A stretch of 64,000 nt of DNA from Thermoanaerobaculia bacterium (GCA_035607445.1 DATMZM010000208.1:1286-65285), one strand, 5' to 3'; counted from the first letter of the stretch, positions 28,301 to 34,300 are shown. Made by a program: numbers and translations. Notes: generated by a model not told the origin, from the sequence alone.

Positions 28301-31300
28301 CGCCGCTCGTTTCGATCCCTCGTGATCGCGACGCGCCTCTCTCGTTCGCCCAGGAGAGGCTCTGGTTCCTGGATCGACTGCAGCCGCTCTCGCCGGCCTA
28401 CAACGTTCCGGCGGCCGTGCGGCTCTCCGGACCGCTCGAAGTCAAGGCGCTGCAACGTGCGTTCGCCGAGGTGAGGAGACGGCACGAGTCGCTACGCACG
28501 ACGTTCCCCGCCGTCTCGGGTTGGCCGGTTCAGAGGGTTGCGTCCGAGCTACCTCTGGCCATGCCGTGCATCGACTTCGGTGGTCTCGAAGTCTCGGATG
28601 CTTCGCGGGCCGAGGCCGAGCTCGATACCCTCGCCGCGCGCGAAGCGACGCTCGGCTTCGATCTTGAGCGCGGACCGCTGCTGCGGGTGACCCTCGTTCG
28701 TCTCGGGGACCGAGACCACGCTCTGCTCTTGACCGTGCATCACATCGTTTCCGACGCTTGGTCGATGGGAGTGATGATCGACGAGATTGCGCGCCTCTAC
28801 GCGGCCTTCATCGAGGGTGGCGACTCGCCCCTGCCCGAGCTTTCGATCCAAAGCGCGGATTTCGCCATCTGGCAGCGTTCCTGGCTCACCGGCGAGGCGC
28901 TTGCCGAGCAGCTCGCTTATTGGCGGAACATGCTCGACGGCGCGCCTGTGCTCAGCCTATCGACCGATCGGCCGCGCGTGGCCCTCCGGGTTTCTCCGAG
29001 CTCGCGATTCAGCCGTGGCTTGTCGGCCGACGACGTCGCACGCTTGCGTCGCCTCTCGCGGGAGTTGAGTGTGACGCTCTTCATGACCCTTCTGGCCGGC
29101 TTCGACGCTCTCCTCGCACGTCTGTCCGGCCAAGACGACTTCGTGGTCGGCTCGACGATCGCGGGACGAACGCGGCGCGAGATCGAGCCGTTGATCGGTT
29201 TCTTCGTCAACACCTTGGCGCTCCGCGCCGATCTCACGGGCAACCCGACGTTTCGCGAGCTGGTCGGGCGAACCCGCGAAATGACTCTCGGTGCTTACTC
29301 CCATCAGGATCTTCCGTTCGAAAAGTTGGTGGCCGAGTTGCAGCCGAAGCGGGATCTTTCCCGCTCGCCGCTGTTTCAGGTTCTGTTCCAGCTCCAGACA
29401 CCGCCTCGCGCAGCTCTCGGGGACGACGGATCAGGTCTCGGCATCAGTCCCTTCCGGACGGGAGGCCGCGGCGCGAAATTCGACCTCGTCGTGACGGCGA
29501 TCGACGGCGGTGATCTGACGGTCGATTGGGAGCTGAACGCCGACCTCTTCGAACGCGCGACGATCGAGCGCATGGCTGCGCAATTGGAGCGCGTCCTCCA
29601 GGCGTTGACGGTCGATCCGGAACGCTGCTTGTTCGACCTCTCGCTATTGGACGAAGTCGAGAGGCGGCAGCTCGTCTCGGTCTGGGGTTCCTTGCGTGCG
29701 GAATTCGAGACGTACTGCCTGCACGGCCGATTCACGGAGCAGGCGACCCGCCGTCCGGAAGCGGTGGCCCTCTGCCTCGGCGATCGCGTCCTCACCTATG
29801 GCGAGCTCGAGCGGCGAGCGAACGCGCTGTCGGACCGTCTCTTGCAGCTCGGGGTCGCGCCAGGGGACCTGATCGGTTTGTGCTTCGAGCGATCGGTCGA
29901 GTTGGTGGTGGCGATGGTGGGAGCGCTGAAGGTCGGCGGCGCGTACGTTCCGCTCGATCCTCAGTATCCCCAGGAGAGACTGACCTTTCTCCTCGAAGAC
30001 AGCGGGATTCAGATCCTCCTGACGCAAACATCTTTGCTCGATCGCCTCCCGAGCCATCGAGCGCACGTCGTGACTCTCGACGGATCGATCTTCGAGTCGA
30101 CGAGCGGAGAGCGAGCAGGCGTCAGCGGCCTCGACCGGAGAGCGGAGTTGAGCCCGGAATTTCCGGCCTACGTGATCTACACGTCGGGTTCGACCGGCCG
30201 GCCCAAGGGAGTGGTGGTGACGCACGCGAACGCTTCTCGATTGTTCGCGGCGACTTCGGAGTGGCTCAAGCTTCGGGAGGAAGACGTCTGGACCCTTTTC
30301 CATTCGGCGTCGTTCGACTTTTCGGTCTGGGAACTATGGGGGTCTCTCCTCTCCGGGGGGCGACTGGTCGTGGTCCCTTACTGGTCGAGCCGGTCCCCGG
30401 CGGAGCTCTTCTCTCTCGTCGTCGAAGAACAGGTCACGGTGTTGAGCCAGACGCCGTCGGCATTTCGGCAGCTGATGTGGGCGGAGGCTGCCGCCGCGGG
30501 CTCACCGGACCTCGCTTTGCGGGAGGTGATCTTCGGCGGCGAGGCGTTGGACCTGGGGAGCCTGGCTCCGTGGTTCGCGAAGCATGGCGACCAAGTTCCC
30601 CACTTGACCAACATGTACGGGATCACCGAGACGACGGTGCACGTTACGTATCGACCGCTGGCTTCGGGCGACGTGGCGCGAGGGAGTCTTGTCGGGCGGA
30701 CGATCGCGGACCTGTCCGTCGTCGTCATGGACCTTCGGAACGCGAACGAGCCGGCGCCGATCGGGGTTCCGGGAGAAATCTTCGTCGGCGGAGCAGGATT
30801 GGCTCTGGGTTACTTGGGGCGGCCGGAATTGACCGCGGAGCGGTTCGTTCCCGATCCGTTCGGGGCGAAGGGAGAGCGCCGCTATCGGTCGGGCGATCTC
30901 GCACGCCGCTTGTTGGATGGCGATCTGGAGTATCTCGGACGAATCGATCATCAGGTGAAGATTCGCGGCTTCAGGATCGAGCTCGGTGAGATCGAAGCGG
31001 CGGTCCTGGGCTTGCCGGGAGTTCGTGAGTGCGTGGTGCTCGCGCGAACGGAGGGCGGTGGCGGTGGCGGTGAGCCGCGCCTCGTGGCCTTCGCCGCGGG
31101 GAATGGCGTGCCCACTCTCTCAGGGCTCCGAGCGCATCTGGCCGCTCGACTGCCGGATTACATGGTGCCTTCGGCCTTGGTGGTGCTCGAGAAGTTGCCC
31201 CTCACTGCCCACGGCAAGGTCGATCGCCGAGCGCTCGAACGGGAAGGCGAGCAGTCGGCGAAGGCGGCATACGTGGCAGCGAGAACTCCGCTGGAGTATT

Positions 31301-34300
31301 TCGTGGCGGAGTTGTGGGGTGAGGTGCTCGGGGCGGAGCAGGTGGGCGTGGAAGAAGACTTCTTCGAGCTTGGAGGCAGCTCGATCACCGGCGCCGTCCT
31401 CGTCAATCGATTGCAAGAGGCCCTGGCGGAAAGCGTCCCGGTCGTCGCCATCTTCCATCACTCGACGGTCGCCGGCTTGGCGCGTTATCTCGAAGCAGAG
31501 CACGCCACGGGAGTGGCGCGATGGCTGGGTGGCCGCAGCTTGGAATGGCAAGCCTCGGAGTCGACACTGGCTCCGATTCCTTCCGTACCGTGGGCTTCGG
31601 GCGAGCCTCTCGCGCTTTCGTTTGCACAGGAACGAATTTGGTTCCTCGACCGGCTCGATCCCGGGAGTCCGGCCTACAACATCTCGATTGCCGTTCGGTT
31701 GATCGGTGCGCTCGACGTGCCGGCTCTCGGGATGGTGTTCACCGAGGTCGCGCGTCGGCACGCGGTGTTGCGAGCTCGCTACGCCACCGTCGGTCGCGAC
31801 CCCGTGCAGGTGATCGCAAGCCCGAGCGAGTGCCCCCTCCCGCGTGTGGATCTGTCCGCCCTGCCTGCCGTGCTTGCGGAACGCGAAGGGCATCGTCAGG
31901 CGCGCGTTGCCGCGATGCGCCCGTTCGACCTCGTACGCGGCTCGCTCCTGCGCGTGACCCTCGTGCGGTCCGGTGCGGAGGAGCACCTGGTGCTTCTGAC
32001 GCTCCATCACATCGCCGGGGACGCCTGGTCGATGGGAGTGCTGGTGCGCGAGGTCGCGGCGCTCTACGGTGCCTTTCATGCCCGGAGGCCGTCGCCTCTG
32101 CCCGAGCTGGCCGTGCAGTTTCCCGACTATGCGCTCTGGCAGCGACGCCGGTTCATTGCCGGTGGCTTCGCCTCGGATCTCGAGTACTGGCGGCGCACTC
32201 TCGCCGAGCTGTCCCCTCTCGCGCTTCCAACCGACCGCCCGCGGCCGCAAGTGCTCTCTTTCCGTGGCGGCCTCGTTCGATTCGAAGTGCCTGGCATCGT
32301 CGCGGAACGCCTCGAAGCATTGGGTCGAAGCCGTCACGCGACGCTCTACATGACGTTGCTGGCGGGAGTCCAGGCTCTACTGCAGCGCTACGCGGGAGGC
32401 GAGGAAGTAACAGTCGGCTCGACCGTGGCCGGCCGCACCCGCCGTGAGCTCGAACCGCTGATCGGTTTTTTCATCAACACGCTGGCCCTGCGAACCAATT
32501 TCGCGGAAAACCCGAGCTATGCCCTGCTTGTCGCGCGCGTGCGAGAAGCGGCGCTCGGCGCGTTCGAACACCAAGAGCTGCCCTTCGAGAAGGTGGTCGC
32601 GGAGATTCAGCCGGAGCGCGATCTTTCTCGCTCGCCCTTGTTCCAGGTGATGTTCCAGCTTCACCAGGTTCAGGGGGCTGTGCTCGATCTGCCGGGCCTC
32701 GAGTTGCGGGCGGAATCGGCGGAGGCGACATCCGCGAAGTTCGACCTGGTCGTGAACATGACGGCGGTGGGCGAGCGGATCGCTGGGTCCTGGATCTTCC
32801 GCACGGATCTGTACGACGCCTCGACACTCGTGCGCTGGTCGGAGCATCTCCGCCATCTGCTGGCTGCGGCGACGCTCGATCCGGATCGTCGGCTCTCGGA
32901 GTTGTCGTTCCTGGGCGAGGAGGAGCGCGAGCAGCTCGTGGCGGCGTGGGGCGCGGCGACCGGCACGTTCGAAACCTTCTGCTTGCACGAGAGATTCTCC
33001 GCGCAAGCGGCGCTACGCCCGGAGGCGATCGCCGTCGGTCTCGACGATGCGGTGCTCACCTACGGCGCGCTCGAGCGGCGAGCGAACGCTCTCGCCGGCC
33101 GTCTCCAGGGTTTGGGCGTCCTTCCCGGCGATCTCGTCGGGCTGTGTTTCGAGCGGTCGCTCGAGATGGTGGTGGCGATCCTGGGCGTTCTCAAGGCCGG
33201 CGCGGCGTACGTGCCTCTCGATCCTCAGTATCCGCAGGAGAGGCTCGCCTTCCTTCTCGAAGACAGCGGCGTCCAGGTTCTCTTGACCCAGACCTCATCG
33301 CTCGGTGCCCTCTCGTCGCATGGCGCCCGCGTCTTGACGCTCGACGGCCGCGAGGGTCTGGGTGGGGGCGGGAAAGGTGTCGAGCCCGGAGCGTCCGTGT
33401 TGCGTTCGGCGGTCCCGGAGCTTCCCGCGTACGTGATCTACACGTCGGGCTCGACGGGCCGGCCGAAGGGCGTCGTCGTCACCCATGCGAACGCGGCGCG
33501 GCTCTTTGCGGCGACGTCGTCGTGGTTCGGGTTTGGGCCCGAAGACGTGTGGACGCTGTTCCACTCGATGGCCTTCGACTTCTCGGTCTGGGAGCTGTGG
33601 GGTCCGCTGCTGTCCGGTGGGCGTCTAGTCGTGGTTCCGTACTGGTTGAGCCGGTCTCCCGCGGGCTTCTTCGATCTTCTGGCTGAGCAGCGGGTGACGG
33701 TGTTGAGTCAGACGCCGTCGGCGTTCCGGCAGCTGATGTGGGCGGACGAGGCAGCGGAGCCTTCGGCTCTCGCGCTCCGCGAAGTTGTTTTCGGAGGCGA
33801 GGCGTTGGACCTCGGCAGCTTGACTCCCTGGTTCATCCGGCACGGCGACCGGCACCCTCGCCTGGTCAACATGTACGGGATCACCGAGACGACGGTGCAC
33901 GTGACCTACCGGCCTTTGGTGGCCGGGGATACGGCGCGAGGGAGCGTGGTGGGATCCGCGATTCCCGATCTGTCGGTGGTCGTGATGGATCTGCAGAACG
34001 GCCTGGAGCCGGCTCCGATCGGGGTTCCGGGAGAGATCTTCGTCGGCGGCGCCGGATTGGCGCTGGGCTACCTGGGGCGTCCGGACTTGACGGCGGAGCG
34101 GTTCGTGCCCGACCCGTTCGGTGCGCAGGGCGGCGCGCGTCTGTATCGTTCGGGAGATCGCGCGCGTCGCTTGGCGGATGGGGATTTGGAGTACCTGGGC
34201 CGGATCGATCATCAGGTCAAGGTCCGTGGCTTCCGAATCGAGCTCGGCGAGATCGAGGCGACGATCGTGGGATTGCCGGGCGTTCGCGAGTGCGTGGTCG

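Follow-up and report, generated by a model that had tools for sequence, protein, structure and literature searches.

A 64,000-nucleotide stretch of DNA from a Thermoanaerobaculia bacterium (GCA_035607445.1, DATMZM010000208.1:1286-65285), hereafter called the window, is filled almost completely by one nonribosomal peptide synthetase (NRPS) assembly line. Domain mapping with internal seeds places this line on the + strand and divides it into three open reading frames (ORFs) and 19 modules. In three of the modules (m6, m11 and m16), an extra domain of ~300 amino acids (aa), matched by Pfam to Sulfotransfer_3, is located between the carrier (T) domain and the condensation (C) domain that follows. 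Module m10 has the same carrier subtype and the same threonine-type adenylation (A) domain as these three, and has no sulfotransferase (ST) domain. We consider it probable from the sequence comparisons below that m10 is a C-A(Thr)-T module of working appearance that was derived from the T-ST-C type by a single in-frame deletion of ~325 aa that removed the ST. In a preliminary description of this DNA, m10 and m11 were called modules j and k, respectively.

Module m10 and its ST-bearing paralogues

Module m10 and its junction with the next module consist of the following elements:

28333-29664, + strand: C10, the condensation domain of m10, with active-site motif HHIVSDAWS
29740-31218, + strand: A10, a predicted Thr-type adenylation domain (core 29740-30816, C-terminal subdomain 30988-31218), with code DFWSIGMVHK and all of motifs A1-A10
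31303-31491, + strand: T10, a carrier of the ST-associated subtype (FFELGGSSITGAVLVNRLQ), with its attachment Ser present (GGSS)
31492-31608, + strand: the T10-C11 linker, 39 aa
31609-32928, + strand: C11, an LCL-type condensation domain fed directly by T10, with motif HHIAGDAWS

The core motifs are intact throughout, including the A motifs, the attachment Ser of the carrier (GGSS) and the HHxxxD motifs of both C10 and C11. The claim made in the preliminary description that module j passes straight into the next C domain was borne out, given that C11 begins at position 31609 after the 39-aa linker. The peptides quoted there (THANASRLFAATSEW, DVWTLFHSASFDFSVWELWG, NMYGITETTVHVT, FFELGGSSITGAVLVNRLQ, YLEAEH and ATGVARWLGGRSLEW) and the DFWSIGMVHK code were likewise all recovered at their places in the frame-0 ORF. 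Pfam matches within 29740-31608 are AMP-binding, AMP-binding_C and PP-binding. No sulfotransferase match is present in this interval, and there is no Pfam match at all within the 39-aa linker. In m11, the corresponding stretch matches Sulfotransfer_3 with E=1.8e-27.

The three paralogues have the following coordinates:

17326-18639, + strand: m6, T6 (17326-17514) and linker-ST-linker (17515-18639)
34555-35823, + strand: m11 (module k), T11 (34555-34743) and linker-ST-linker (34744-35823)
51759-53027, + strand: m16, T16 (51759-51947) and linker-ST-linker (51948-53027)

The distance between carrier and condensation domain reflects this arrangement, amounting to 375 aa in m6 and 360 aa in both m11 and m16, compared with 39 aa in m10 and 20-33 aa at ordinary T-to-LCL junctions. 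Thus, the earlier statement that the carrier linkers of the paralogues lead into an ST of ~300 aa is correct for m6, m11 and m16 by both Pfam and spacing, and the T-C linker of m10 exceeds the ordinary linkers of the same protein by 6-19 aa. The inserted domain is of the CurM/OLS type (PF13469, ~300 aa, with a loop of sequence PxRSG(S/T)T for 3′-phosphoadenosine 5′-phosphosulfate, PAPS) and lies between T and C in m6, m11 and m16, not in m10.

Both sequence and modeled structure indicate that the ST of m6, m11 and m16 is a bona fide CurM/OLS-type domain. Sequence matches in the PDB include 4gbm (E=1.9e-61) and 4gox (E=1.9e-58). An AlphaFold (AF2) model of a 443-aa T11-ST11 construct has a predicted local distance difference test (pLDDT) score of 90.5 and a predicted template modeling (pTM) score of 0.89, and the ST fold occupies approximately residues 108-416. 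Comparison of this model with the CurM and OLS STs by using Foldseek yields template modeling (TM) scores of 0.92 and 0.95, at 36-37% sequence identity. Moreover, ST11 carries every column that is invariant among 57 homologues, including the RSGxT loop, the Lys of DKTPSY, the RHP motif and the Glu in PPEL, which is probably catalytic in view of its conservation in this set. Beside this Glu, the STs of the window (34906-35547 and the paralogues), as well as those of the external loci L044, L135 and L091, read PPELELL instead of the PPELHLL of CurM/OLS, such that His is replaced by Glu.

A search with ST11 returned 522 homologues, most of which are metagenomic fragments. Many have the order T-ST, some T-ST-C and some ST-TE (TE, thioesterase), and the proteins that finish with ST-TE resemble CurM in this respect. 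The named homologues are mostly from Thermoanaerobaculia, and Methylomirabilota, Planctomycetota and cyanobacteria are also represented. T-ST-C modules were seen in Thermoanaerobaculia genome bins (L044) and on several metagenome contigs, with Ser-type A domains in L044/L129, L141, L135 and L131 and a Thr-type A domain in L091. Because the external T-ST-C modules always follow A domains with Ser- or Thr-like codes, this distribution fits a β-hydroxyl target.

The A domain of m10 had been described as belonging to the same unusual subtype as those of its paralogues. The sameness holds, whereas the label “unusual” does not. The code DFWSIGMVHK agrees with DFWNIGMVHK at 9 of 10 positions and A10 clusters with other Thr-type A domains, which together predict that A10 activates Thr. 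Domains of this ordinary Thr type are also found in m14 and m19, both of which lack an ST, and in 24 modules of other loci. What distinguishes m10, m11 and m16 is solely the Ser at code position 278, where m6 and m14 carry the canonical Asn.

The carriers of m6, m10, m11 and m16 are set apart more clearly. T6, T10, T11 and T16 are mutually 59-64% identical (96% for T11 and T16), compared with 28-44% identity to the other 14 carriers in the matrix. T10 is 59-64% identical to T6, T11 and T16, and the identity between T10 and T11 is the same as that between T6 and T11 (61%). Carriers that precede external STs share the pattern FFELGGxSIxGAxLINRLQ...VVxIFDAPT...YLxxxYPxAVARxxG. A profile made from 27 external ST-linked carriers, with none from the window, gives scores of 104, 95 (94.7), 107 and 102 bits for T6, T10, T11 and T16, respectively, versus 40-68 bits for every other carrier in the window. 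This result upholds, well beyond what chance would give, the proposal that m10 shares the carrier subtype (then called PCP) of its paralogues. The profile match extends into the C-terminal extension only for these four carriers, reaching position 86 in T10, compared to ordinary carriers in which it stops at positions 69-81. At 10 columns that discriminate between the two groups (consensus LANQEVYYAG), T10 has eight of the consensus residues and differs from T11 and T16 at none of the columns, whereas the ordinary carriers T9, T12 and T14 have none or one.

In the T11-ST11 model, the C-terminal extension forms an extra helix (PVGVARLM) after helix 4 of the carrier; a disordered stretch separates this helix from the N-terminal helix of the ST. 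Alignment with this model indicates that T10 has retained the extra helix as ATGVARWL. In a tree of carriers, T10 falls within a clade of ~30 ST-bearing carriers from other organisms, and the internal topology agrees with that of the A-domain tree considered below. The subtype occurs across several phyla and could be used to spot sites that formerly carried an ST or that are served by one in trans.

Linker remnants and the boundaries of the missing segment

The preliminary description had suggested that alignment of the three T-ST-C linkers with the T-C linker of module j would locate the edges of the indel. This alignment maps the boundaries and resolves most of the m10 linker into three parts:

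31501-31545, + strand: putative pre-ST linker remnant HATGVARWLGGRSLE, in which ATGVARWL is the counterpart of the PVGVARLM extra helix in the T11-ST11 model
31546-31563, + strand: putative deletion scar WQASES, ~6 aa, which fits neither flank
31564-31608, + strand: putative post-ST linker remnant TLAPIPSVPWASGEP, with the pattern xxIP...W..GEP seen after ST6 and after the STs of L088, L021, P0034 and L135

The upstream part resembles linkers that lead into an ST. T-ST proteins from other organisms repeatedly show an xVARWLG or xVARxxGxExL pattern, and the m10 sequence GVARWLGGRSL is similar to the start of the external T-ST linkers of L091 (AVARWLPADATT), P0082 (AVARWLGHDD) and P0001 (AVARVWGEESLG). 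For the downstream part, we ranked 365 distinct linker tails, taken from the window, from 159 external loci and from protein matches, by their similarity to the 16 aa immediately before C11 (LAPIPSVPWASGEPLA). Post-ST tails take five of the top six places (L088, m6, P0034, L135 and L021); this category makes up only 15 of the 365 tails. By our own arithmetic, the hypergeometric estimate for this outcome is about 3e-7. Similarly, “GEP” is present in 4 of 12 post-ST tails versus 4 of 337 other tails.

In the numbering of the modeled m11 construct, the part absent from m10 runs from about residue 93-97 to about residue 421-427. These ~325 aa include the complete ST fold with its N-terminal helix, along with most of both disordered linkers. 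The breakpoints fall in the disordered stretch at residues 92-107 of the model and in the segment past the last ST helix. No trace of an ST was detected in the linker DNA when its middle 54 nucleotides (nt) were compared with the three ST regions by local alignment, in which scores of 16-19 were obtained versus a mean of 19 for shuffled sequences. Module m10 has homologous modules that contain the ST, an intact reading frame and both of the linkers that would have flanked the lost domain, as is expected of a natural in-frame deletion.

The same result could in principle arise in the computer rather than in the genome, if the assembler had skipped an ST that is present after T10. There are reasons to take this concern seriously, since the gene is highly repetitive, with exact repeats of up to 59 nt shared by m11 and m16, and since the best database matches are metagenome-assembled genomes, such that the source of the window itself is possibly a metagenomic assembly. 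However, a collapse requires a common repeat at both edges of the lost segment, and none is present. Exact matches between the region 30900-32100 and the rest of the window extend to 20 nt at most, and the longest falls within the conserved C1 motif (LSFAQERxWFLDRL). Given such short repeats around the junction, a repeat-mediated collapse is unlikely. In addition, the junction is in frame, and its unique sequence (WQASES) is without counterpart in the ST regions. T10 differs considerably from T6, T11 and T16, and the identity of C11 to other C domains does not exceed 54%. We therefore regard an assembly artefact as highly improbable.

If the deletion reading is correct, then m10 demonstrates that an ST can be excised naturally from between carrier and C domain with the reading frame and the core motifs left intact. 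The boundaries also suggest candidate fusion points for NRPS engineering, one after the extra helix (...GVARWL-GGRSLE) and the other before the (W)xxIP...GEP tail.

Loss or gain of the ST domain

A neighbor-joining tree of 30 Thr-type A domains yields the topology (m6-ST,(m10,(m11-ST,m16-ST))), with bootstrap values of 94 for the group of m10, m11 and m16 and 100 for all four modules. Because m10 is nested among ST-bearing modules, one loss suffices to explain its state, whereas gain requires two insertions. Ser278 is a derived state common to m10, m11 and m16. Based on the A tree, Ser278 and the post-ST tail, loss is the most likely polarity, and m10 probably descends from a T-ST-C module. 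The clean domain-level indel proposed in the preliminary description is thus supported, and it can be narrowed to a probable deletion by the nesting in the A tree, the ST-type carrier, the post-ST tail and the absence of the whole ST fold.

Several findings weigh against this interpretation. Bootstrap values within the carrier tree are low (11-36). The ST tree does not reveal co-inheritance of the STs, as ST6 and ST11 share 67% identity and their identity with the external L091 ST is 64-66%. The C domains that follow STs form no clade, and C11 is not specifically related to them. C11 shows a weak grouping with C6, C10 and C16, all acceptor-Thr C domains, as well as with a single external post-ST C domain (L131). 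The modules also exchange sequence with each other, as is evident from the m11-m13 and m16-m18 tract with its 80-98% identity, and this could have distorted the A tree. Carriers of the ST type that are not followed by an ST exist elsewhere, which means that the subtype is no absolute sign of a former ST. Finally, no orthologous cluster was found in two contig collections (genome and metagenome) and one protein database, where the best matches are 48-51% identical, and so the ancestral state is read from paralogues alone. All T-C fragments recovered in a protein search with the T10-C11 junction have ordinary carriers.

The ST-less members of the carrier clade are L134, L043, L158, L006 and L045, in which the carrier is followed by a TE domain, and three T-C cases with weaker scores, including those of L048 and L140. 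The upstream A domain is of the Thr type in L134, L158 and L045, and L134 retains a pre-ST linker (AAVARLFGPEALG). Losses of the ST, or states free of it, thus extend beyond m10, and the presence of an ST behind carriers of this type seems to have been switched repeatedly.

Some of these same findings would be expected if m10 instead preserved the ancestral, ST-free state, and STs had been inserted on two separate occasions, one behind T6 and the other behind the T11/T16 ancestor, at sites predisposed by the carrier subtype. ST6 and ST11, at 67% identity, are no closer than ST11 and the L091 ST, at 66%, ST-type carriers without an ST occur in other loci, and the carrier tree is poorly resolved. 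However, two insertions would have had to hit one and the same position in the linker, and the scenario conflicts with the placement of m10 inside the ST-bearing modules (bootstrap 94) and with the shared derived residue S278. Furthermore, m10 has both a post-ST-type tail and a pre-ST-type linker, neither of which is expected in a module that has always lacked an ST. We judge the separate gain of STs to be rather improbable.

Of about equally low probability is the possibility that T10, or A10 together with T10, was copied from a T-ST module and joined to C11 by recombination just past the carrier, without any deletion on site. The linkers of this gene do undergo recombination, as one conversion tract starts exactly at a C-A linker, and the lack of a close relationship between C11 and the post-ST C domains would be explained. 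Nevertheless, the post-ST-type tail before C11 means that the second breakpoint would also have to lie past an ST, which makes this the same ST-excising event. In addition, C10, A10 and T10 all pair with C16, A16 and T16, at 62, 76 and 64% identity, respectively. A single deletion from a T-ST-C module consequently remains our preferred explanation. An indel of this kind is nothing unusual in evolution; the T-ST-C context in which it occurred is less ordinary.

An origin of m10 by plain C-A-T tandem duplication was also considered and rejected, because an ordinary T-C tail would then be expected before C11. The tail is of the post-ST type, and C11 and C10 are only 50% identical.

The conversion tract mentioned above spans ~32.9-40.3 kb and ~50.1-57.5 kb. 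Starting from the C-A linker and continuing through A-T-ST-C-A-T, the two copies share 80-98% of their amino acids, a value that drops to ~68-72% in m13/m18. At the DNA level, exact repeats reach 59 nt (35392 and 52595). On the sequence data, the m11-m13 and m16-m18 regions are a segmental duplication or a gene-conversion tract. The tract begins exactly at the C-A linker, which is used as an exchange point in NRPS engineering.

Functional reading and the surrounding assembly line

We propose that the CurM-like STs of m6, m11 and m16 would act on Thr bound to the adjacent carrier and O-sulfonate the (3R)-hydroxyl of this residue with PAPS. L-Thr has the 2S,3R configuration, and as a thioester it is a (3R)-β-hydroxyacyl-S-carrier of the same configuration as the substrate of CurM. 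In m10, a single in-frame deletion of ~325 aa, with both breakpoints in the disordered linkers flanking the ST fold, would have left behind the ST-type carrier with its extra helix, the ~6-aa scar WQASES and the post-ST tail TLAPIPSVPWASGEP. Lacking the ST, m10 would hand plain Thr to C11, and the product would contain an unmodified Thr next to a modified Thr.

A different outcome is expected if T10 is still sulfonated by an ST of the same line, most plausibly by the adjacent ST11. In this case the Thr of m10 would be modified, and the module would provide no “unmodified” control. T10 retains every signature residue of the subtype found in T11 and T16, it keeps the extra helix after helix 4 that is seen in the confident T-ST didomain model, and its divergence has been no faster than that of T6. 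The excised ST of CurM is also said to work on separate substrates bound to an acyl carrier protein (ACP) in vitro. On the other hand, retention of the signature may merely reflect a recent deletion or constraints imposed by A10 and C11, ST11 is located ~1100 aa downstream, and we know of no precedent for an in-line ST that serves a neighboring module. Service in trans is unlikely in our estimation, although less so than either of the two alternative origins discussed above.

The known system closest to the T-ST pair is the “activating” sulfotransferase of CurM and of the cyanobacterial olefin synthase (OLS), whose termination modules have the order ACP-ST-TE (4gbm, 4gox). As in these proteins, the ST of m6, m11 and m16 directly follows the carrier, and the predicted substrate is again a carrier-bound (3R)-β-hydroxyacyl thioester. 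In contrast, the ST here is internal to an NRPS (T-ST-C) and is followed by a condensation domain instead of a thioesterase, the predicted substrate is an amino acid, PPELELL replaces PPELHLL, and m10 has no ST at all.

No description of an internal T-ST-C arrangement was found in the full-text literature searched, where the nearest match was OciA, the cyanopeptolin synthetase of Planktothrix, in which an ST domain is integrated in the NRPS polypeptide (PMC2533009). OciA resembles m6, m11 and m16 in having an ST built into an NRPS polypeptide. The OciA ST reportedly lies in the initiation module, where it acts on a side chain derived from glyceric acid, and the product retains the sulfate.

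A natural precedent for the variation seen in m10 is provided by mcyA of Planktothrix, where microcystin synthetase genotypes differ by an embedded N-methyltransferase domain (PMC3827215). In both systems an NRPS module varies naturally by a whole embedded tailoring domain, recombination is involved and one residue of the product is changed, or is predicted to be changed in the case of m10. The mcyA variants, however, are alleles in different strains in which the A domain is replaced as well. In the window the variants are paralogous modules of one polypeptide, the A domain is kept and linker stubs of the lost domain appear to remain.

Module m10 is not the sole ST-less Thr module in the line, since m14 and m19 also lack an ST. 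Each of these is followed by a C domain of the CmodAA type (Thr modules m14 and m19, respectively):

45612-46919, + strand: C15, CmodAA condensation domain after m14
from about 62.9 kb to 64000, + strand: CmodAA condensation domain in ORF3, after m19

These domains match McyA (8jbr, E=1.7e-91) and AmbE (7r9x, E=4.6e-51), and TENHAIFDGWS (NHAIFDG) replaces the HHxxxDG motif. Dehydrating CmodAA domains such as those of AmbE and McyA are a known NRPS route for modifying the β-hydroxyl of Ser and Thr. They differ from STs in fold and mechanism; m10 has neither device behind it. The carriers upstream of the CmodAA domains are of a third type (FFALGGDSIRSLQV), so that three kinds of Thr module occur in one assembly line. 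The presence of both ST and CmodAA in the same line suggests that the two devices give different outcomes.

Taken together, these observations permit a broader speculation, which we advance tentatively and regard as doubtful. T-ST-C could represent an undescribed tailoring logic in which a CurM-type ST, paired with its own carrier subtype and docking helix, O-sulfonates Thr or Ser. In the curacin pathway, sulfate serves as a leaving group. If the sulfate likewise leaves here, then dehydrobutyrine, an aziridine or another substitution product could be formed, and m10 would be a relic that either supplies plain Thr or is served in trans by ST11. Such a system would constitute a second route for Ser/Thr modification beside CmodAA, and service by ST11 would provide the first example of cross-module action by an in-line ST. 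Whatever the outcome, the line offers a built-in control, as one polypeptide combines Thr modules with an ST (m6, m11 and m16), a Thr module that probably lost it (m10) and Thr modules followed by CmodAA (m14 and m19). Analysis of a single product could reveal the effect of an in-line ST on Thr.

The ORFs of the window are as follows:

left edge of the window to 42255, + strand: ORF1, which enters from the left edge, 14,084 aa inside the window
42252-59513, + strand: ORF2, 5,753 aa
59507 (ATG) to past the right edge (64000), + strand: ORF3, the third NRPS ORF, with C, A(Thr), T, CmodAA...

ORF1 and ORF2 together contain 18 A domains (m1-m18), each in a C-A-T module, and m19 is in ORF3. No epimerase or thioesterase domains turned up in the domain-mapping scans of the window. 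The start of ORF3 overlaps the stop of ORF2, and the beginning of ORF3 resembles that of ORF2. ORF1 and ORF2 end with charged tails that extend ~45 aa past the last carrier (42121-42255, ...EERTLALERRRSRPRKDLS; 59379-59513, ...EERMRELLAKKRSDPEPGEK). The N-termini of ORF2 and ORF3 form acidic helices (...LALYEQLLAEEGIE and ...LELLERMLEEEGLF), and start and stop codons overlap at both ORF junctions. These termini are likely to be docking pairs.

The Gly-type modules m9 and m15 adjoin m10 and m16 on the upstream side. Both have the code DILQLGLIWK, and their A domains are 62% identical. Within the compared regions (26533-29664 and 47007-50135), C10 and C16 are also 62% identical. From these module sequences, the product probably contains a repeated motif ...Gly-Thr*-Gln-X..., of which the ORF1 copy has one additional Thr contributed by m10.

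Base composition varies along the line. The G+C content drops within a single ORF from 0.76 (1-2 kb) to ~0.65 (28-32 kb and 40-48 kb), and the corresponding value for third codon positions (GC3) falls from 0.92 to 0.71-0.77 along the window. GC skew is strongly positive across both duplicated tracts (34-40 kb and 50-56 kb). This pattern may reflect a mosaic origin of the modules.

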